From a virus (lineage: Duplodnaviria; Heunggongvirae; Uroviricota; Caudoviricetes), in IMG/VR virus record IMGVR_UViG_2778261184_000002, positions 1-48,639 of that record: 48,639 nt of DNA; one strand, written 5' to 3'. This document shows, piece by piece, positions 4,281 through 44,831 of this stretch. The translations under genes were made by a program, and so were the position numbers. Numbering within the stretch: position 1 is the first letter of the stretch; every line of letters begins with the position of its first letter. The notes below the pieces were generated by a model that saw only the letters and a list, made by a program, of their open reading frames with translations, was not told the DNA's origin and made no database searches.

Positions 4281-4532
4281 TCAACTAACAATCCAGTCCA
4301 TAGCAACCATATCCTCTGGCGCTAAATCAATAGCATGGATTTTCCCATTCCGGATAGTGCGCCAGTGCTTTCGTGATCCGCCTTCTTGCCATACCCATAC
4401 ACCTTCAGACCATGATGCGCGACGACACACTGTTGCATATCCACTTCTGATCTTCTCTCTGGCTGTATGCAGTGACAGATTATCTTTTGGGATTTCCGGT
4501 AAAGGATGGTGGATTGCCTGAAACATCCCCAT
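4281..4532 (-). CDS. DUF2829-like small protein (Tad2-type fold candidate)
   Basis: 83 aa; V-x-RR-x-(S/A)-W near N-terminus (VCRRASWSEGVWVW) and D-W-I/E-V at C-terminus (MDWIVS), shared with four other ORFs in the window. Confidence 0.5.
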   Translation of the reverse strand: MGMFQAIHHPLPEIPKDNLSLHTAREKIRSGYATVCRRASWSEGVWVWQEGGSRKHWRTIRNGKIHAIDLAPEDMVAMDWIVS

Positions 4533-4534
4533 CT

Positions 4535-4714
4535 TTAATTGAGGATCTCCATCGCATCAAGAGTGAAGCGGGCAGCAAAAATGCAGGGGGTATCAGGAAG
4601 GTATGAGCGAGCTTCTGCTTCGGTAGCAGCCATGACGCAGATATACAGGTGTTTTTGGCAGGAATAGAAACGCCAGATAAATTCAGAATGAGTTGGGGTA
4701 GGGGTAGTAGCCAT
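4535..4714 (-). CDS. icd: Icd-like small protein (host cell-division-inhibitor family)
   Basis: 59-aa ORF not in track (MATTPTPTHSEFIWRFYSCQKHLYICVMAATEAEARSYLPDTPCIFAARFTLDAMEILN); RBS AAGGAGG; FIWRF...AATE-EAR signature shared with ORF 43041..43265; 2 nt upstream of the DUF2829 gene. Confidence 0.5.
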   Translation of the reverse strand: MATTPTPTHSEFIWRFYSCQKHLYICVMAATEAEARSYLPDTPCIFAARFTLDAMEILN

Positions 4715-4898
4715 AATGGCAGCCTCCTTTTGCTAATTTAAGGAGCTACCGCGTGAGGTTCCAATCTCAATGGCGGTAGCACTGACTGGGTTGGAACTAC
4801 CGGCGCAAAAGGGAACCGGCCTGCCTTTCGGCAGCCCAGCCAGCACTACCATTGATCTCTGAGCTAAACGCTACGTATGGCTGTGCGATGGCATGACA

Positions 4899-4921
4899 CA
4901 AAAAAAGACGCTTTCGGCGTC
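4899..4921 (-). terminator. Rho-independent terminator (minus strand)
   Basis: GACGC-tttcg-GCGTC hairpin followed on the minus strand by T7. Confidence 0.5.
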
Positions 4922-5028
4922 TGTGTCGCCTTTTGCATTATCCGGGGTTCCAATCCCGGCACCCGTTTTTCTAAGGTGCCGTAGAAATATACCCCACGAT
5001 AATGCCAGGGCGCAACTGTGTGTTTTCT

Positions 5029-5516: not shown

Positions 5517-5533
5517 TGTTAGAAAATTAATTC
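5517..5533 (+). promoter_or_regulatory. Operator-like 17-bp motif copy (TGTTAGAAAATTAATTC)
   Basis: One of at least 14 copies of consensus TGTTAGAAAATTAATTT. Confidence 0.45.
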
Positions 5534-9729: not shown

Positions 9730-10725
9730 ATGAGTGCAATAATCACCCCATATGTCGTAAATGAAACTGGTGTGGCTGTCTTTCCTGTAGATAAGCCCAC
9801 CAGCAATTACATCGGCGCAGGCCGCCGTTTTCTTATCTCCCCATTGCCGCGCGAACAGGCTGAAAACACCCCTGATGGCGTCGTGGACCTGAATTATTCC
9901 CTGGTTGCCAACCAGTCACTGACACCCTTTTTTCAAAGTGAGCGCGTATTTAATGCGTTAGGTGGCGAGGATTCTATCGTTCACTGGGTTAGCACCAACA
10001 TTCACGATTGCCAGGCGCATGATAAGCGCGATTGTAGCCACCAGCTAACCACTCACTTCTATAACGGTTCTGCCGTTCGCCTGTGCTGGAAGCATGATGC
10101 GGAATACATGATGAAGGGGTACAGCAAGCTGGACGACCAGTTATCCCTGAATCGCGCCAACTGGGTTATGAACTGGGCTGCGAGCGAGTTAAAACTACCG
10201 CCAGAACGCGATCTTAGCATGGTTGAACTCACTTTTTGGGCCATTCGCCGGAATCTGAAAGATGAGCTGCCAGATGAAGCCGGGCGCATTGCATTTTGTC
10301 AGCCAAAAACTGAAATCCCTACCGGTACGCTGAAAGAATCAGATATCACCTGGGAGCACAGTACCCGCGAGCTGGTGGACATAACCGCAGAGCAGATCGT
10401 CAACCTGTCTGTAGATGAGGATTCCGGCCTGCTTTATATGCGCCGACCAAAAGCGGTCCTCGGTAAAAGCCCAGCTTATCTCCGGTTTGTGGTTTCTCGT
10501 CCGTGCATCGGATGCGGTGGCAAAGTTAACCACCCGTTCATGTACCGCGCCCGCTCGTTAAACGAACACGACCGCTGGGCTGTTCCTCTTTGCGATGACT
10601 GCGCCAGAAGCGCAGAAAACGATGTCCGGGCATGGGAAAAAGCACATGGCATACGCCTTTACGTAGCCGCTAACCAGCTTTTTGACTTCGCCATCGAGCG
10701 CGGAGTGATCACGTTCAATAACTGA
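9730..10725 (+). CDS. Hypothetical protein with C-terminal Cys/His-rich (HNH- or Zn-ribbon-like) domain
   Basis: C-terminus CIGCGG...H...PLCDDC; N-terminal 250 aa without recognisable motif. Confidence 0.45.
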   Translation: MSAIITPYVVNETGVAVFPVDKPTSNYIGAGRRFLISPLPREQAENTPDGVVDLNYSLVANQSLTPFFQSERVFNALGGEDSIVHWVSTNIHDCQAHDKRDCSHQLTTHFYNGSAVRLCWKHDAEYMMKGYSKLDDQLSLNRANWVMNWAASELKLPPERDLSMVELTFWAIRRNLKDELPDEAGRIAFCQPKTEIPTGTLKESDITWEHSTRELVDITAEQIVNLSVDEDSGLLYMRRPKAVLGKSPAYLRFVVSRPCIGCGGKVNHPFMYRARSLNEHDRWAVPLCDDCARSAENDVRAWEKAHGIRLYVAANQLFDFAIERGVITFNN

Positions 10726-10738
10726 TGGGAACAATGCA

Positions 10739-11038
10739 ATGAGTCAAGGTAATGGTGACGGAGCTGCAAAGTGCAGAATCTCCACTTGTTTGATTAATGA
10801 CAAAACAATAGAACCGTGCGCGGCGTTGGCACAATCTCTGGAGCAGGATGCTGAATACACGACGCGGAAAGGTCTGCTGAAATACAAAATCTATAACCAT
10901 GAATTAATTCATTCACAAGACCTGATCATGCTGCGATCAGGCGAGTTTTCTAAATCGCCGATTCGAATTTCATTTTGCCCGTTCTGTGGTGAAAGTCTGA
11001 AAACGCGGGAAGCGGAGGCAACCAGTGAGCAAAATTAA
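10739..11038 (+). CDS. Small Cys-containing protein (possible zinc ribbon)
   Basis: 99 aa; CRISTC near N-terminus and CPFCG near C-terminus. Confidence 0.4.
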   Translation: MSQGNGDGAAKCRISTCLINDKTIEPCAALAQSLEQDAEYTTRKGLLKYKIYNHELIHSQDLIMLRSGEFSKSPIRISFCPFCGESLKTREAEATSEQN

Positions 11039-23036: not shown

Positions 23037-23053
23037 TGTTAGAAAACTAAATC
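23037..23053 (+). promoter_or_regulatory. Operator-like motif copy (TGTTAGAAAACTAAATC)
   Basis: 10 bp upstream of the RBS of ORF 23065. Confidence 0.45.
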
Positions 23054-23064
23054 GAGTAGGAATA

Positions 23065-24102
23065 ATGAGTAAGAAGTCGATCGAGAAAGAGTACAAACGG
23101 TTCCTGCAAACCGCTGAACGGTGGAAAGAGCTGGTGGTCGCAAACTCTGTTTTCCATGATACCAGTTATGCCGGCGAGGAATTCCGCCACGTTGCACTAA
23201 CACATGATCAGAATGTGCTAGAAGAAGCTGAAAAGTGCCTCACAGAATGGAAAGCCTTTGTTGACTTGTGCCGTAACGCTGACGGCAAAGCGTCCAACAT
23301 TGTTGAGTCTGTATATTCTCCGATCCCATTCATTATTGAGGACACAAATCAAAGCACGCATATTGTTGTGCAAAGCGCGACCACCACCCGCTCATTTACG
23401 CGCGAAAATCTGCTCAAAAAATATGATGCAATTATAAAGAAAAGCCTGAAAAACAAGATATTTTCGCAGATTGTTGGTGCACTTGAAGAAGAGCGCCGTT
23501 TTTTCGCATCAGAACCTGAAGGGGAAGTTTACCGGGCGCGCAAAGATGGATACACAGATGTAGTGCTTACAACAAACATTGAAGGCAGCAATGCTCTGTC
23601 ACGATTCAGGGTAGGCGCACACGGAGCCTTAGTGTTCGCAAAACTTCCGAACACCACAGTGCCCGTTGTTAATAATGTCGGCGAACGTCGCAGCATTACT
23701 ATTTATTCTGGGGTTGAGTCGATCCCTTGCGGCCTGCTTGGTGACTTTAGTCTCTATCGCGTTCGCGATCTGGAGAAACACCAACCAAGCTATGTTGCGA
23801 AGTCATACATCTTGCGAAACATCGACATCCGCAATGAGAGCTTAAAGAACAAATCAGCCAAAATGCTTGAGGAAGCCGATCCGGCTATTCGCCATATCAT
23901 TGAGCGTAAAATACAGACAGCACGCGAAGCGATGGCGAGACTGAATAAAATGGATCTGGAGTTGTTAGACGTAATGATGACATCCGGAGATGACCTGACA
24001 GGCATAAAACTGACAGACGCGCGGAAAAGATACGGTAAAACCATAGAAGAACGTTACGGGTTCACTTTCTCCCAAACACAGCACGCCGCTAAACTCTGGT
24101 AA
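23065..24102 (+). CDS. Hypothetical protein; positional candidate for the primary immunity repressor (C1 analog)
   Basis: 345 aa; lies between pacB-like gene and the recombination site as c1 does in P1; three operator-like motifs within 210 bp upstream. No sequence motif supports the function. Confidence 0.35.
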   Translation: MSKKSIEKEYKRFLQTAERWKELVVANSVFHDTSYAGEEFRHVALTHDQNVLEEAEKCLTEWKAFVDLCRNADGKASNIVESVYSPIPFIIEDTNQSTHIVVQSATTTRSFTRENLLKKYDAIIKKSLKNKIFSQIVGALEEERRFFASEPEGEVYRARKDGYTDVVLTTNIEGSNALSRFRVGAHGALVFAKLPNTTVPVVNNVGERRSITIYSGVESIPCGLLGDFSLYRVRDLEKHQPSYVAKSYILRNIDIRNESLKNKSAKMLEEADPAIRHIIERKIQTAREAMARLNKMDLELLDVMMTSGDDLTGIKLTDARKRYGKTIEERYGFTFSQTQHAAKLW

Positions 24103-28964: not shown

Positions 28965-29040
28965 TGGTGGCCCCTACCGGATTTGAACCGATGACCGTGC
29001 GATTATGAGTCGCCTGCTCTAACCACTGAGCTAAGGGGCC
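28965..29040 (-). tRNA. tRNA-Ile (anticodon CAU, lysidine-type ileX-like)
   Basis: GGCCCCTTAGCTCAGTGGTTAGAGCAGGCGACTCATAATCGC...GGTTCAAATCC...GGGGCCACCA; clean cloverleaf, encoded CCA. Confidence 0.9.
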
Positions 29041-29482
29041 AATTAGTTTTTATTTTCGACGTCTGAGATTCTTCGTAACTTGTTCTATTCCGTAGACGAT
29101 CACAAGTAGAAACAGCAAAGACCATCCAGGGTTCTTATCGATATACGTCCAAAAATCCATCATTAGTTCCTGTGTTCACCTTACAGCACTGCCACTGAAA
29201 CCAACTATCCGAACAGTAGTTGTCACTCAATAGACGTGACGTATTTATTAGGTTGCGGTGCCGGGTGCCTCCCGGTGCCTGGCGAAGGTTGCACGCCAGG
29301 CGGGTGAGTATCCACAGAAGGCCGACTGTCAGTCTCAACCTTGACCCGCGTGCGCTTAGCCGCATTCACCGCAATGGTAAGAGCACTTGGCTGGCTGGGC
29401 GGCGATGATGCCTGTACGCATTTGGTGATCCGGTTCTGCTTCCGGCATTCGCTTAATTAGCCAAATACTCTTAACGTTGCGC

Positions 29483-29569
29483 TGGCGGAGAGTAATGGAA
29501 TCGAACCATCATCGCTTGCGCAATGGGACGGTTTTCAAGACCGCTTGAGCACCATGCTCCCTACTCTCC
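29483..29569 (-). tRNA. tRNA-Ser (anticodon UGA), class II with long variable arm
   Basis: GGAGAGT...CGGTCTTGAAAACCG anticodon arm, T-arm GATGGTTCGATTCCATT, acceptor ACTCTCC-G-CCA. Confidence 0.85.
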
Positions 29570-29714
29570 GGCCGTTGTGGTGGCCGGTACTGAATCTCCG
29601 GCATACGGTGCAGCCAATTAGGACTACGGACGATCACCGCTCGCGAAAGGGAAGGTTTGCGGCCGCATTTCCCTAACATCCAAGAAAGCTATCGCATCAG
29701 TCTGCGAATCCACC

Positions 29715-29806
29715 ACAACGTTGAGAACACTGGTTGTCACGCTGCAACGCAACATTTATTCGTAGATTGGGATATGACCCCGTTACGTCAGTGTTCTCAA
29801 CGTTGT
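29715..29806. repeat. Perfect 18-bp inverted repeat (ACAACGTTGAGAACACTG / CAGTGTTCTCAACGTTGT) with 56-bp loop
   Basis: Arms 29715-29732 and 29789-29806, inside the tRNA cluster. Confidence 0.8.
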
Positions 29807-30034
29807 AGTACCGGTTACGGTTCCGGCCAGGCCTCTTCCTCAACGGGGTATTCTCCATACGGACTACCGTTTATTGGTCGTTCCTGCGGTTTATGTTGTG
29901 AAGCCAGATGCTTATCTTCTGGTTGCTTCAAAGAGCTGCACTTCATCACAACGGTAAGGGTACTTCGTAGGGATTCGAACCCTCTGCCAAGCACGGCGAT
30001 CTCCGACGTCGCAAAATACCCTTACCTGTTGTGT

Positions 30035-30110
30035 TGGTGCCGATTAACGGACTCGAACCGCTGACATCCTGCTTACAAGGCAGGCGCTCTACCAACTGAG
30101 CTAAACCGGC
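30035..30110 (-). tRNA. tRNA-Thr (anticodon UGU)
   Basis: GCCGGTTTAGCTCAGTTGGTAGAGCGCCTGCCTTGTAAGCAGG...GGTTCGAGTCC...ATCGGCACCA. Confidence 0.9.
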
Positions 30111-30112
30111 AT

Positions 30113-30189
30113 TGGCGATGGTGGGTGGATTCGAACCACCGACCGACAGCTTAGAAGGCTGCTGCTCTATCCTACTGAGCTACACCATC
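30113..30189 (-). tRNA. tRNA-Arg (anticodon UCU; reads rare AGA/AGG)
   Basis: GATGGTGTAGCTCAGTAGGATAGAGCAGCAGCCTTCTAAGCTGT...GGTGGTTCGAATCCACC-CACCATC-G-CCA. Confidence 0.9.
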
Positions 30190-42104: not shown

Positions 42105-42131
42105 AAAAAGCCCCGGCCAGGCCGGGGCATC
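42104..42131 (-). terminator. Rho-independent terminator (minus strand)
   Basis: GCCCCGGCC-ag-GCCGGGGC hairpin followed on the minus strand by T6. Confidence 0.6.
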
Positions 42132-42136
42132 ACGCT

Positions 42137-42337
42137 TCAATTCACGATCCAATCATTACCGACTATATCAGCCGTCGATAAATCAACTTCCCGGATCTGG
42201 AGTCCATTAATACAAAACCATCCGGTAGTAGAGTAATTATCAGGCCAGGCCCATACACCAACACTCCATGCTTTACGGCGGCACACTTCAGCCTGTCCTT
42301 CCCTGATTTTTTTTACCGCCTGCATGATGTCCATCAC
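42137..42337 (-). CDS. DUF2829-like small protein
   Basis: 66 aa; VCRRKAWSVGVWAW ... NDWIVN. Confidence 0.5.
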   Translation of the reverse strand: MMDIMQAVKKIREGQAEVCRRKAWSVGVWAWPDNYSTTGWFCINGLQIREVDLSTADIVGNDWIVN

Positions 42338-43040
42338 TCACCTCCCCAACCGATCACCTGGAATTGCCCCATTTTGGGGTGATACCAGCGTTTTCCTCGG
42401 TGTTCAGCCTCCGACATCATCCGGTTAAAAGCATTCATGAAGGGAGATAAGGCCACGATGGAACGACGCAACAATACCCCCTCTGGAGTTAAAAACTCAT
42501 GTGTATCGGTGGGGATCCGGTAAGCGTTAACCAGGTTGCGACATTTGGCTTCGGTCAGGCCGCATTTTGCCGCCAGCTGGCGGTAGCCAATGTAACCTTC
42601 CGGCATGTTGCCCTTCTTGATTTGCTCGACGGTTTCTACCACCTGGCTAACCTTTGACTCAACAACATGAAGCCGCTTTTGCTGCTGAACTGCATTTGCA
42701 GCCATTGCGGCGATCATCTCTATTTCGGTCAACGGCTGGCGTGCTTGTTCTTCCAGTTCGCGCCAGCGGTCCACCAGCCGGGCAGTAAACTCAGGACAAA
42801 GCTGTGCGACTACAATGATACTGTCTCGTTTGCCTTGCTCGTCGCTAAATCGGAACACCTGAATTAATCGAGAACGCCCCATTACATCTATTTTTGGTTC
42901 ATCCTCAATTTGAGGACGAACAATAACGCCGGATTCGGCTAATGTTTCAATGGTACGCTTCACATTGTCATGACGTTTTCCCACCAGCTCCGCGATCTCA
43001 ATGCTGGTCATTGATGGCTTTTCAAGAATGCAGATATCCA
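42334..43040 (-). CDS. Rha-family phage regulatory protein (antirepressor candidate)
   Basis: N-terminal TSIEIAELVGKRHDNVKRTIETL signature; start placed at ATG 43040, abutting icd-like stop. Confidence 0.6.
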
Positions 43041-43265
43041 TCAGTGTGCCTCCGCAATTCCGGGATTGGTAATATTGCGATACCAAGGATTAGTGTTTGG
43101 TTGTGATGAAGTAGAGAAACGGCCAGTCAGGACGCCATGTTGATCAGGGATCAGAGAACGGGCTTCTTTTTCAGTTGCGGCAATTGCGAAGTGATCGCAG
43201 TGTTTTTGCAGGGAGTGGAAACGCCAGATGAATTCTGGACGTGAGCAAGGATTGGCATTAACCAT
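43041..43265 (-). CDS. icd: Icd-like small protein
   Basis: EFIWRF...AIAATEKEARSLIP signature; followed directly by Rha/Ant-like gene, as icd-ant in P1 immI. Confidence 0.55.
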   Translation of the reverse strand: MVNANPCSRPEFIWRFHSLQKHCDHFAIAATEKEARSLIPDQHGVLTGRFSTSSQPNTNPWYRNITNPGIAEAH

Positions 43266-43267
43266 AG

Positions 43268-43400
43268 TTACGGCCTCACTAACAGGTTTAACAACCTGCT
43301 ACCCGCTGTCAAACAGGTGGCAGGACGTGACAGGGTTGACAGACTGGCGTTAGTGAAACCAGCAGGCCGAAGCCTCCCCATCACGCCCCACCATAATTCG
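43268..43400 (-). ncRNA. Candidate c4-like antisense/structured RNA region upstream of icd
   Basis: Nested inverted repeats (CCTCACTAAC/GTTAGTGAAA; CTGTCAA/TTGACAG; CAGGTGG) between operator-like site and icd start. Confidence 0.3.
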
Positions 43401-43594
43401 GGCGTAACGCGGTTTACGGACACAAAAATACCGCAATATCGGAAATCTGCGGTTGTCCGCACTAACATTCAGGCTGTCAAACCTGGTCGCAGAATTTGCT
43501 ACGACGGCATGAATATAAGCCTGAAAACATGGAAGATCAACTAAAAATTTCAGCAATGGATGACTTCAGTCGATGATGCAGATCATACATTCCG

Positions 43595-43624
43595 ATTTAG
43601 AAACGGCAAATTAATTTTCTAACA
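43595..43624 (-). promoter_or_regulatory. 30-bp composite operator-like site (TGTTAGAAAATTAATT-N7-TCTAAAT on minus strand)
   Basis: Upstream of the c4-like/icd/ant module, analogous to P1 Op51. Confidence 0.5.
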
Positions 43625-43678
43625 CAAAATGTCGAGCGAGCATTTTCCGATCATTGGGATGTTTTGTAGACGCACAGG

Positions 43679-44641
43679 TCATCCCCTAAAGCCAGCCGGG
43701 ATTGACCAATCCTCACGGTCAAATTCAGACCGATAGCCACGCTGTTTCATCAGGTCAAAGGCTTCACCAATGGTTGCACACCCCTGGGAGCCAGAATAAT
43801 CCATTGAGAAATCCAGGGCACTGGATTGTTTAGGCTTATTCACTGCGGTAGCGGCACTACGTATCCATGCAAATTTTTTTGCCAGCTTTTCAGCGGTACG
43901 ATACAGAGCCTGCCGTTTTGTGTGCCCCTCGTCTGAACGACGCTTTGCAGCTCTCGCTTTTGCCGCCGCCAGGCAGTGGTTGGTCTGTTCTTCCCTGATT
44001 ACTGTTTTTTTATCCAGTACCCCGTTATCCGTTTGAGAACTATCTGCTGGTGAAGCCTTTGGCTGAACCGCGCATGATCTTTCTCTTCTTTTGGCTATAG
44101 AGTGACTCTTATTTTCTATTGGCTGTTCATTTTGAACATGGGGGGACTTGTTCAATTTGAACAGGGGGTTCCCAGTTTCAAAAAAATAACGAACCTTTGA
44201 AATCAACTGCTTAACCAGTTTTGTGGCGTTGGCAAATTTGATGCCCTGCTTACCCCCTATCTCCATTGCTACATGAATGAAGTGGAGAAATAGTGTCGTA
44301 AACCGATATACGTTACACACCTGGGCATTGTTATTCGCTACCTGATGTTGCTTAACAAGCATTCCGCACTTCGTCGCTTCAGCAAATGCCCGGCGTACAG
44401 TAGAAATACTGCGTCCTGTAATCTCGGACATATCAGCATATGAGCGACGGATCATGTATTCATCGGTAGACCCTGCCAGGTTGGCGAACTCGGCAATAAT
44501 GGCGCTATGTGAAGGGGAAAGAAGACCGCTATGACGAGCAAAAAAACTCAACTGATGACCTTTGATTTTTTTGTGGTATTCAGTGTTGTTTTTATACTCA
44601 GAAGTGTTGAAAGTTACTGAAACTGAATTTAAAATATTCAT
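43679..44641 (-). CDS. Hypothetical HTH-containing protein
   Basis: 320 aa; HTH-like MSEITGRSISTVRRAFAEATKCGML. Confidence 0.45.
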   Translation of the reverse strand: MNILNSVSVTFNTSEYKNNTEYHKKIKGHQLSFFARHSGLLSPSHSAIIAEFANLAGSTDEYMIRRSYADMSEITGRSISTVRRAFAEATKCGMLVKQHQVANNNAQVCNVYRFTTLFLHFIHVAMEIGGKQGIKFANATKLVKQLISKVRYFFETGNPLFKLNKSPHVQNEQPIENKSHSIAKRRERSCAVQPKASPADSSQTDNGVLDKKTVIREEQTNHCLAAAKARAAKRRSDEGHTKRQALYRTAEKLAKKFAWIRSAATAVNKPKQSSALDFSMDYSGSQGCATIGEAFDLMKQRGYRSEFDREDWSIPAGFRG

Positions 44642-44814
44642 CAGATAGTTCCGTGCAAAAATCTATCTACCGTATAAATCTATGCCAGTGGATTTATACA
44701 CCAAAAAGCCGCTTCTCAGCGGCTTTTGCTTTTTTTGGCAGTCGCTACCGGAGCAGTGACCGCGATCCTACTCGATCACATCGGACAGGATCAACAGTGT
44801 ATATAAATACACTA

Positions 44815-44831
44815 TGTTAGAAATTTAATTT
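44815..44831 (+). promoter_or_regulatory. Operator-like motif copy (TGTTAGAAATTTAATTT) preceded by near-palindrome AGTGTATATAAATACACT
   Basis: Intergenic between pro-like and the 320-aa gene. Confidence 0.4.

Follow-up and report, generated by a model that had tools for sequence, protein, structure and literature searches.

A probable c4-icd immunity operon with a P1-type C4 RNA in a D6-like phage-plasmid of Escherichia coli

Many plasmids related to the phage-plasmid D6 carry a short icd gene preceded by a stretch of DNA that is left blank in their RefSeq annotation. The question raised by this locus is whether the blank stretch encodes an antisense RNA that controls an antirepressor, as in the immI (secondary immunity) region of P1. 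An original prediction, made from the sequence alone, had read the locus as an immI-like module composed of an operator, a structured antisense RNA, icd, and an antirepressor gene. The window, by which we mean the whole stretch of DNA that was analysed (48,639 nt), is a D6-like E. coli phage-plasmid. It matches D6 at 100% coverage and 95.1% identity with the same annotated genes, and many plasmids are approximately 98% identical to it (range about 98–99%). The RefSeq annotation of the matching plasmids has only icd under the match and leaves the RNA module blank. A related region is carried by 536 of 5426 complete E. coli genomes. We conclude that positions 43624 to 42110 are very probably the immI operon of this D6-like phage-plasmid and that its RNA part is orthologous to c4-icd of P1.

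To place the locus relative to P1, we aligned it with the P1 c4-icd region. Positions 43154–43525 are 93.6% identical to this region and a1, b1, C4, a2, b2, the –10 and –35 hexamers of P51b, and the icd start annotated in P1 all align onto the window. The prediction of an immI-like module is thus supported, and every element that it had named was found, at most a few bases from where it had been placed. Sequence features indicate that the minus strand from 43624 to 42110 is a single operon. The order repL, c4, icd, Rha-type ant, and 65-aa ORF, with a D6-type operator upstream, is that of the D6 backbone. Around its immI-related region (orf17 to orf20), D6 likewise has repL, the c4 region, icd, ant of the Rha type, the ORF of 65 aa, and peptidoglycan hydrolase in succession. 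The c4-icd arrangement, including a second module, has already been described for D6-like plasmid prophages and is an ordinary system. For instance, the D6-like plasmid pYU39_89 has c4, icd, and an antirepressor in the same region and a second c4-icd region elsewhere (PMC6799933).

The spacer between the icd start codon (43265) and position 43595 is 329 bp long, in agreement with the predicted non-coding stretch of about 330 bp rich in nested inverted repeats. These repeats are exactly the complementarities of a C4 RNA, namely b2 with b', a2 with a', and b' with b1. The RNA has the following parts:

43316 to 43392, minus strand, C4 antisense RNA, equivalent of the mature form (77 nt)
43349 to 43355, minus strand, b' (CACUAAC) in the loop of C4 hairpin 2
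43336 to 43342, minus strand, a' (CUGUCAA) in the single-stranded stretch 3' of C4 hairpin 2

As had been proposed for checking the prediction, we searched the region with covariance models and folded the RNA. The Rfam C4 model (RF01695) matched 43313–43398 on the minus strand over its whole length (model positions 1–87 of 87) with 68.8 bits, well above the gathering score of 45 (E 2e-11). The c4-a1b1 model (RF03163) matched 43466–43518 on the same strand with 54.4 bits (gathering score 46.7), 68 nt upstream of the C4 match. The C4 equivalent is identical to P1 C4 at 77 of 77 nt. It has a minimum free energy of –42 kcal/mol (z = –4.55) and none of 200 shuffled sequences was as stable. The fold reproduces the RF01695 model, which consists of a long closing stem, two internal hairpins, and a single-stranded a' segment. 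We considered whether the complete identity to P1 C4 reflects a recent patch of recombination from P1. This is unnecessary because the C4 scaffold hardly varies in any lineage and, of the codes in the sampled D6-type loci, that of P1 is the most frequent.

Target sites for the RNA were located both upstream and downstream of C4. Those downstream lie in the leader of icd:

43274 to 43312, minus strand, icd-leader target region, comprising a2, a small hairpin (43280–43301), b2, and the Shine-Dalgarno sequence
43306 to 43312, minus strand, a2 (TTGACAG), exact complement of a'
43277 to 43283, minus strand, b2 (GTTAGTG), exact complement of b', its last G being the first base of GAGG
43274 to 43277, minus strand, icd Shine-Dalgarno sequence GAGG, 8 nt before the icd ATG

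The a' and b' segments are thus complementary to a2 and b2 over an exact 7 + 7 nt and b2 overlaps the icd ribosome-binding site. A second copy of the targets, a1 and b1, lies upstream of C4. All four targets match a' and b' exactly and there is no other such pair of a and b targets in the window. Exact complementarity of the four targets to a' and b' was also seen in each of 111 related loci, which represent 12 specificity classes. In an alignment of 28 sequences, the a'/a2 and b'/b2 positions are 100% paired, with 8 of the 14 pairs changed on both sides and none changed on one side only; controls in which the segments were slid along the alignment were 26–54% paired. Calculated duplex energies did not serve as a test of pairing because RNAduplex unfolds C4, so that cognate and non-cognate partners scored alike; exact complementarity and covariation were used instead. 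Together, these data support the idea that C4 and its targets have changed in concert.

The upstream targets lie in a leader RNA that follows the downstream of two candidate promoters:

43582 to 43609, minus strand, upstream sigma-70-like promoter, TTGCCG, 16 nt, TATGAT (9 of 12 matches in the promoter scan)
43512 to 43540, minus strand, downstream promoter, TTGATC, 17 nt, TATATT (9 of 12 matches), aligned with the –35 and –10 hexamers of P1 P51b
43424 to 43518, minus strand, leader RNA with a 5' hairpin, a second hairpin with a1 in its loop, single-stranded b1, and a terminator-like hairpin
43474 to 43480, minus strand, a1 (TTGACAG), in the loop of the second leader hairpin
43460 to 43466, minus strand, b1 (GTTAGTG), single-stranded in the leader

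In the P1 annotation a2 and b2 are C4 binding sites and a1 and b1 are only "putative" targets. In our alignment of 28 sequences, a1 and b1 are likewise 100% paired with a' and b', and their covariation is no less strict than that of a2 and b2, which indicates that they are under selection. This raises the question of what the leader does. One answer is that it is a riboregulator of the IsrK type, in which transcripts ending at the terminator-like hairpin would yield a short RNA with a1 and b1, and this RNA would activate icd and ant in trans, either by titrating C4 or by remodelling the mRNA. The ratio of leader RNA to C4 would then set the switch, adding a layer to the immI reading rather than replacing it. 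As well as by the strict covariation of a1 and b1, this is favoured by the match of the Rfam isrK model to the full length of the leader (43424–43505), including the terminal hairpin and U-run at about 43424–43453. In the second module of the window, isrK matches with 62.5 bits, above the gathering score, directly upstream of the C4 there. In Gifsy-1, IsrK activates in trans the translation of a small ORF and of the coupled anrP, and the transcript also yields a processed species of approximately 80 nt (PMC4825925). However, the isrK match in the leader studied here (43.5 bits, E 3e-8) is below the gathering score of 50, the loop of the terminal hairpin is 12 nt long and the hairpin was not called by the terminator scan, and a1 and b1 have the guarded status in P1 noted above. 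We therefore regard an IsrK-like role of the leader as possible but somewhat doubtful.

We then asked whether the operon also has a repressor site as in P1. The original prediction had placed a composite operator-like site at 43595–43624, and two elements are seen there:

43608 to 43624, minus strand, 17-bp asymmetric operator motif TGTTAGAAAATTAATTT, a putative site for a C1-type repressor, sharing 2 nt with the –35 of the upstream promoter
43597 to 43603, no strand assigned, inverted half-motif TTAGAAA, pairing with 43616–43622 (inverted repeat TTAGAAA/TTTCTAA)

The 17-bp motif stands. With up to 3 mismatches allowed, the window has 11 copies of it, compared to 0.28 expected. All 11 copies score above 21 bits with a PWM, a figure that is circular because the PWM was built from these same 11 sites; at the reporting threshold of 10 bits, 20 mononucleotide shuffles gave 2–8 matches. 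Composite is a fair description of the site, since the inverted half is present, but this half scores below 10 bits and does not make a full second site. It is possibly a weak second half-site. Other copies of the motif include a bivalent pair upstream of ref (6153/6166), one at 23037, 28 nt upstream of c1, and one at 44815, between pro and repL. As a comparison, the P1 annotation places C1 operators at c1, c4, and kilA-repL, and the window has its motif at c1, repL, and c4. A P1-type operator at the module was rejected, because the window contains no site within 3 mismatches of the P1 C1 consensus ATTGCTCTAATAAATTT and the 17-bp motif described above stands in its place. The window encodes a distant C1 homologue of 345 aa (23065–24102) that is 20% identical to P1 C1. 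By analogy with P1, the motif is presumed to be bound by this C1-type repressor of the element itself.

The promoter below the operator deserves some caution. Promoter-like matches were not enriched in the region (5 found versus 4.0 expected from shuffles) and for this reason we base the upstream promoter on its position relative to the operator. In P1, Op51 overlaps the –35 of P51a, and the upstream promoter would be the positional analogue of this repressor-controlled promoter. No PWM match to the operator motif lies over the downstream promoter (43512–43540). No intrinsic terminator was detected between the operator and repL, which lies directly upstream on the same strand, so that read-through from repL could add an input that is not controlled by a repressor at the operator.

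Downstream of the RNA part are three coding genes and a terminator:

43041 to 43265, minus strand, icd, a 74-aa Icd-like inhibitor of host cell division, the first translated gene of the operon
42334 to 43041, minus strand, Rha-family putative antirepressor of 235 aa, with its own GGAGG and its start coupled to the icd stop (TGATG)
42137 to 42334, minus strand, Tad2-like (DUF2829-fold) protein of 65 aa, encoded by the third and last gene, with its start coupled to the stop of ant (TGATG)
42110 to 42128, minus strand, intrinsic terminator found by the terminator scan (GC-rich 8-bp stem followed by T6), the end of the operon

The first ORF after C4 is an icd homologue whose stop overlaps the antirepressor start by one base, and both proteins have family matches, so the prediction of an Icd-like ORF abutting a Rha-family antirepressor-like gene holds. 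Icd matched NF033153 (phage_ICD_like) with 40.4 bits (cut-off 25) and phrog_1426 with an E-value of 3e-39; it shares 62% identity with P1 Icd and 97% with D6 orf19. The second protein, which is 86% identical to D6 orf18, matched Pfam Phage_pRha with 36.3 bits (threshold 29.9) and has phrog_63, "anti-repressor Ant", as its best family (E 7e-46). The NCBIfam model for Rha (TIGR02681) gave 18 bits against a cut-off of 46, and the assignment is based on Pfam and PHROGs. The Ant1/Ant2 arrangement of P1 was not found: P1 has an ANT/KilAC-domain Ant1, with no Rha domain and with a nested in-frame Ant2, whereas the protein in the window has Phage_pRha and no ANT domain. A blastp comparison with P1 Ant1 and KilA showed no similarity (E 1e-3). 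The terms "immI-like" and "Rha/Ant" used in the original prediction are consistent with a Rha-family protein that lacks similarity to Ant1 and is found with a different operator consensus and a gene order that is not that of P1.

These differences leave room for another function of the Rha-family protein. It could be a DNA-binding regulator or a toxic or host-directed protein, in which case the module would act on cell division and a further early function instead of immunity. Orthologues bear the RefSeq name "Rha family transcriptional regulator", winged-helix DNA-binding models (HTH_24) match the N-terminus, and Ant1, to which the protein has no likeness, is the only antirepressor of this system that has been studied biochemically. 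Against this, in addition to the phrog_63 match, the gene occupies the position of P1 ant, is coupled to icd, and is annotated as a putative antirepressor in the D6 record. In nearly all of the loci surveyed, the type of ant also tracks the type of operator and hence of repressor, and the TGTTAGAAAATTAATTT type of motif was found in all D6-type loci surveyed, although this linkage could merely reflect a common backbone. We consider a function outside immunity unlikely and, from the position of the gene, favour a role as antirepressor.

The 65-aa protein was not recognised directly. Its own score with PF11195 (Tad2-like) is 15 bits (E 0.037), below the Pfam gathering score of 25 bits, and no relevant match came up when PDB chains were searched by sequence. 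A word-indexed search for homologues found 3 matches and a full HMMER scan 7 cluster representatives. The link to Tad2 came from a family-wide Pfam scan and a fold search. PF11195 matched 6 of 6 members of the protein's family (best 3.6e-9), the AlphaFold model has a pLDDT of 92, and the top 10 Foldseek matches in the PDB are all Tad2 (probability 1.00, TMq 0.73–0.76). We therefore describe the protein as Tad2-like, a modelled assignment supported indirectly, through family and fold. In D6 orf82, which belongs to a paralogous module of D6, a Tad2-like domain is fused to the C-terminus of the antirepressor. The Tad2-fold ORF is followed by the terminator and a convergent peptidoglycan hydrolase gene.

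The comparison with known systems can now be made more closely. P1 and P7 immI have the same layout of a1/b1 and a2/b2, with b2 at the icd ribosome-binding site and a homologous P51b. The window likewise has an operator over the –35 of the upstream promoter and an icd that overlaps the start of the next gene, although the overlap is ATGA in P1 and TGATG in the window. The operator consensus is TGTTAGAAAATTAATTT (D6-type) compared with ATTGCTCTAATAAATTT in P1. The surroundings also differ, since P1 has kilA-repL downstream and the sim genes upstream; the window has neither arrangement, lacks kilA, and has repL upstream on the same strand, with a RepL that is 29% identical to P1 RepL. The isrK-orf45-anrP region of Gifsy-1 resembles the operon in that an isrK-family leader precedes a structured RNA (about 80 nt) and a small ORF whose translation is coupled to that of an antirepressor gene, but the regulation described there is activation by IsrK in trans and the C4 terminology is not used (PMC4825925). 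We found no sequence or structural relationship of C4 to the sar RNA of P22. In the immI region of P22, the small sar antisense RNA keeps the antirepressor ant untranslated in the lysogen. Sar is a cis-antisense RNA from the opposite strand and P22 also has the repressors Mnt and Arc, whereas C4 would come from the same transcript as its target and has two short pairing segments.

Based on P1, we propose the following model. Transcription would start both at the upstream promoter beneath the 17-bp operator and at the P51b homologue, which has no operator. The transcript would carry, in order, the leader with a1 and b1, the 77-nt C4, a2 and b2, icd, the Rha-type antirepressor gene, and the Tad2-fold gene. 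By analogy, C4 would be excised from this precursor; RNase P is the enzyme that cuts at the 5' end in P1 (PMC11143913, citing Hartmann et al. 1995; for the P1 C4 mechanism see also PMC12197685 and PMC8201110). In P1 and P7, the C4 so released is known to build up as an RNA of some 77 nt that acts in trans against icd and ant (PMC11143913, PMC12197685). The exposed a' and b' heptamers would pair with a2 and b2. Because b2 adjoins the icd Shine-Dalgarno sequence and shares a base with it, translation of icd would be blocked, and the antirepressor and Tad2-like genes, coupled to icd through the TGATG overlaps, would be silenced too. In P1 the untranslated mRNA additionally undergoes premature termination. 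A lysogen would in this way hold its own antirepressor off and would also silence that of an incoming phage with the same a'/b' code. Should C4 be outrun, or be titrated as the a1/b1 leader may do, both Icd and the antirepressor would be made and repression lifted.

It could also be supposed that the module is an inactive relic that has recombined into the element from a P1-like phage. Such decay does occur, since about 720 bp of the antirepressor gene are missing from the second c4-icd module of the window (4281–4979), in contrast to D6. In the operon studied here, by contrast, the promoters, the C4 identical to that of P1, the four exact targets, the three coupled ORFs with Shine-Dalgarno sequences, and the terminator are all intact. 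The same combination of P1 code, D6 operator, and Rha-type ant recurs in at least 7 further viral contigs and in the plasmids that are about 98–99% identical. A relic is accordingly very improbable. In an older view, c4 encoded a protein repressor. That the spacer encodes a small protein, as this view would have it, has next to no chance of being right: mechanical ORFs of 66–75 aa are present, the old P1 record X15639 annotates c4 as a CDS, and phrog_16064, the only family match of the spacer ORFs, does match the region, but this match is broken across two frames of the window, relatives vary mainly in the heptamers, where the changes in the RNA strictly compensate one another, and the covariance models score far above threshold.

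The codes carried by different loci bear on what the operon means for its host element. There is free recombination among two alleles of a' and at least seven of b', and loci on P1-type and on D6-type backbones have codes in common. Two C4 modules that are orthogonal to each other occur within single genomes. These observations suggest an RNA "immunity barcode" with multiple alleles that is exchanged across phage-plasmid lineages, an idea that we did not find in the literature searched. The operon may also control more than the antirepressor. Tad2 is a sponge that counters Thoeris defence by binding signalling nucleotides (gcADPR or His-ADPR). From the modelled fold, the C4- and C1-gated operon may deliver a counter-defence protein along with the antirepressor early after infection or induction. 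Alternatively, the Tad2-like domain may be a ligand-sensing or oligomerisation part of the antirepressor and, if so, prophage derepression could be linked to a nucleotide immune signal. We hold these extensions, the barcode included, to be speculative and on balance improbable.

The reading of the locus from its letters caught a non-coding regulatory RNA module that RefSeq leaves blank, and its value is mainly that of a positive control. The shared a'/b' code, the presence of two modules per genome, and the putatively C4-controlled Tad2-fold gene are of possible modest interest for phage-plasmid ecology and anti-defence. The window carries the P1 code (CUGUCAA and CACUAAC), not that of P7 (CUGCUAA and CACAAUC) or of D6, in which b' is CGUAAGU with matching b1 and b2. 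By the rule established for P1 and P7, the element and D6 should be heteroimmune at immI. From its sequence, the element is predicted to have the immI specificity of P1 itself rather than that of D6 or P7, and this specificity bears on which phage-plasmids can live together in one E. coli cell or superinfect it.

The original prediction placed an immI-like antisense-RNA module, resembling the c4-icd-ant arrangement of phage P1, at this locus. The Rfam scan, which covered the whole window, detected C4 antisense RNA with 68.8 bits against a gathering score of 45, which was reproduced on repeat, and c4-a1b1, the family of C4's upstream targets, with 54.4 bits against 46.7. The operon has the following parts:

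43608-43624, 17-mer TGTTAGAAAATTAATTT, candidate operator
43609-43582, minus strand, upstream promoter-like site (TTGCCG, 16 nt, TATGAT), whose -35 shares 2 nt with the operator
43540-43512, minus strand, downstream promoter (TTGATC, 17 nt, TATATT), about 40 nt further downstream
43466-43518, c4-a1b1
43313-43398, minus strand, C4 antisense RNA
43041-43265, minus strand, icd (NF033153, 40.4 bits; 62% identical to P1 Icd)
from 43041, minus strand, Rha-family gene starting within the icd stop codon (TGATG); best phage family 'anti-repressor Ant'
42137-42334, minus strand, 65-aa ORF, last gene of the operon
42128-42110, minus strand, GC-rich terminator at the operon end

At 43316-43392 (77 nt) every base is the same as in the mature C4 annotated in P1, and this stretch adopts the expected, stable fold (-42 kcal/mol, z = -4.55). 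C4 carries two recognition segments, b' (CACUAAC) in the loop of hairpin 2 and a' (CUGUCAA) in a 7-nt single-stranded stretch ahead of the closing stem. The leader forms two hairpins, the second with a1 (UUGACAG) in its loop, followed by single-stranded b1 (GUUAGUG) and then a hairpin and U-run. Directly 3' of C4 lie a2, a small hairpin and b2, in that order, and the GAGG Shine-Dalgarno of icd starts with the last base of b2, 8 nt ahead of the icd ATG. The nested inverted repeats that had been noticed in the roughly 330-bp spacer are there, and in its 329 bp they are the known complementarities b2/b', a2/a' and b'/b1. The Icd-like ORF does abut the Rha-family gene as described; icd, the Rha-type gene and the 65-aa ORF are chained via two TGATG overlaps with GGAGG ahead of each. 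The targets match a' and b' exactly. Every part of the original observation held up, and its reading as a P1-like module is supported.

Matches to 43230-43640 occur in 536 of 5426 complete E. coli genomes. Among the best matches listed, public annotation under the match has only icd and the RNA is missing. Separately, phrog_16064, a PHROG of unknown function, matches the c4 spacer at 43268-43556, split over two reading frames in the window; it probably represents ORFs overcalled on conserved c4 DNA.

We also examined how the recognition segments vary among relatives. Searching with 21 nt of the C4 scaffold brought up 119 viral contigs from IMG/VR, 111 of which had enough flank, and these loci were surveyed together with P1, P7, D6 and the window. 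Two a' alleles (CTGTCAA and CTGCTAA) and seven b' alleles occurred in 12 combinations, and at all 111 loci a1, a2, b1 and b2 were exact complements of the locus's own a' and b'. In an alignment of 28 sequences from 11 classes, the 14 pairs of a'/a2 and b'/b2 were 100% paired, with two-sided changes at 8 and one-sided changes at none, and the a1/b1 set behaved identically; the C4 scaffold itself, with 27 pairs, was almost invariant. When the partner was slid by 1-3 columns as a control, pairing over the whole tested structure fell to 33-54%. Such covariation is characteristic of a recognition code maintained by selection, and C4 specificity is combinatorial. The main module has the P1 code, which is also the most frequent one in the sampled D6-type loci, whereas D6 differs from it in b' (CGUAAGU) and P7 in both segments. 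Backbones of the P1 type, with the P1 operator and Ant1, and of the D6 type, with the D6 operator and a Rha-type antirepressor, share the same codes, and the pairing of operator type with antirepressor type held almost without exception in the surveyed loci.

Because C4 and its targets are identical to those of P1, control by the P1 mechanism (P1 annotation; PMC12197685; PMC8201110) is very likely here. C4 would be cut out of the operon's own transcript, as judged from orthology with P1; RNase P processing of C4 is cited in PMC11143913. Its a' and b' would then pair with a2 and b2 and occlude the icd ribosome-binding site, and the block of icd would also silence the genes coupled to it. It is less certain that the Rha-type protein antagonizes the element's repressor, a role suggested by family name, position and linkage to operator type; it has no homology to P1 Ant1. 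An extra layer, in which the leader terminates at its hairpin to give an IsrK-like sRNA that opposes C4, is plausible but less likely than not. It has a precedent in the Gifsy-1 isrK-orf45-anrP locus (PMC4825925), and the isrK model matches the whole leader, at 43.5 bits, under its gathering score of 50.

The operator-like site noted originally was borne out as the 17-mer with a short inverted partner. At up to 3 mismatches, the 17-mer has 11 copies in the window against 0.28 expected, at 5517, 6153/6166, 9658/9671, 21636, 23037, 27514, 31255, 31411, 32661, 43608 and 44815. Copies precede ref, the c1 homologue (by 28 nt) and each of the two c4 modules (5517-5533 by the second); one sits in the pro-repL interval, and others lie elsewhere. 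Two of the 11 strong copies have a weaker, overlapping inverted partner at a 13-nt offset, and these pairs, including that upstream of ref, resemble the bivalent C1 operators of P1. The P1 C1 operator consensus had no match in the window, and of the 17-mer only the AT-rich 3' half is shared with it; P1 has annotated C1 operators at c1, c4 and kilA-repL. The set probably comprises operators of the D6-type C1 repressor predicted at 23065-24102 (345 aa; 'prophage repressor' according to the D6 authors; 20% identical to P1 C1, E 8e-8). Operator and upstream promoter have the same geometry as Op51, the C1 operator of P1 immI, and promoter P51a. The downstream promoter aligns to the P51b hexamers, and a PWM scan with the motif found no operator over it.

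The 2.8 kb surrounding the module are 95.1% identical to Escherichia phage D6 across their full length and 97-98% identical to about 100 90-kb plasmids of E. coli and Salmonella. The local order annotated in D6 is darB, peptidoglycan hydrolase, orf17, putative antirepressor, icd, repL, pro and prt. Because of this identity and gene order, we assign the window to a D6-like phage-plasmid related to P1. In P1, repL lies downstream of the c4 operon, behind kilA; by contrast, here it lies directly upstream on the same strand, in this setting:

44815-44831, operator copy
44704-44727, terminator
43679-44641, minus strand, repL (29% identical to P1 RepL)

The interval from the repL stop (43679) to the c4 operator showed no intrinsic terminator, so transcription may read through from repL into c4-icd-ant. 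Elsewhere, ARAGORN found four tRNA genes at 28965-30189 on the minus strand (Met-cat, Ser-tga, Thr-tgt, Arg-tct), three of them also found by Rfam. The D6 GenBank record has tRNAs at corresponding positions but on the plus strand, one named Asn, which is probably an annotation discrepancy.

The window also holds a second, paralogous c4 module:

4281-4979, minus strand, whole module
4901-4979, minus strand, isrK (Rfam, 62.5 bits)
4769-4856, minus strand, C4 (Rfam, 76.7 bits)
4791-4797, minus strand, a', GUUCCAA (DNA GTTCCAA)
4805-4813, minus strand, b', CCCUUUUGC (DNA CCCTTTTGC)
4947-4953, 4929-4936, 4758-4764 and 4726-4733, exact targets a1, b1, a2 and b2; b2 covers the AGGAGG of icd
4535-4714, minus strand, icd (59 aa)
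4281-4532, minus strand, remnant ORF (83 aa) directly after this icd, a C-terminal Tad2-like domain

Outside the main module and this one, the window has no combined a and b target pairs. The code of the second module is orthogonal to that of the main module, so one genome carries two independent C4 switches. A second c4-icd region has already been noted in pYU39_89 (PMC6799933). Comparison of 4281-4536 with the D6 locus (10279-11000) and with all 12 best plasmid matches shows that the module lacks about 720 bp. The deletion takes away the Rha portion and the centre of a 313-aa Rha-type antirepressor and appears rare or private.

The 83-residue remnant is homologous to the 65-aa protein of the main operon (43% identity). 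All six members of this small family match Pfam PF11195 (best 3.6e-9), the window's 65-aa protein itself only at E 0.037. Its AlphaFold model (pLDDT 92), with a Tad2-like (DUF2829) fold, gave convincing matches solely to Tad2 structures, which made up the top 10 in a Foldseek search of the PDB (probability 1.00, TM 0.73-0.76). Tad2 is a Thoeris anti-defence protein. As modelled, the family is a divergent Tad2-like domain; D6 orf82 carries it joined to a Rha-type antirepressor.

By every feature tested, the RNA part and icd belong with P1/P7 immI, whereas the antirepressor, operator consensus and flanking genes do not; the whole arrangement agrees with D6 and D6-like plasmids. The side observations offer a modest, speculative upside. 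The module itself is already known: the system is a textbook one, and this orthologue of it sits in a family of elements that has been described before.
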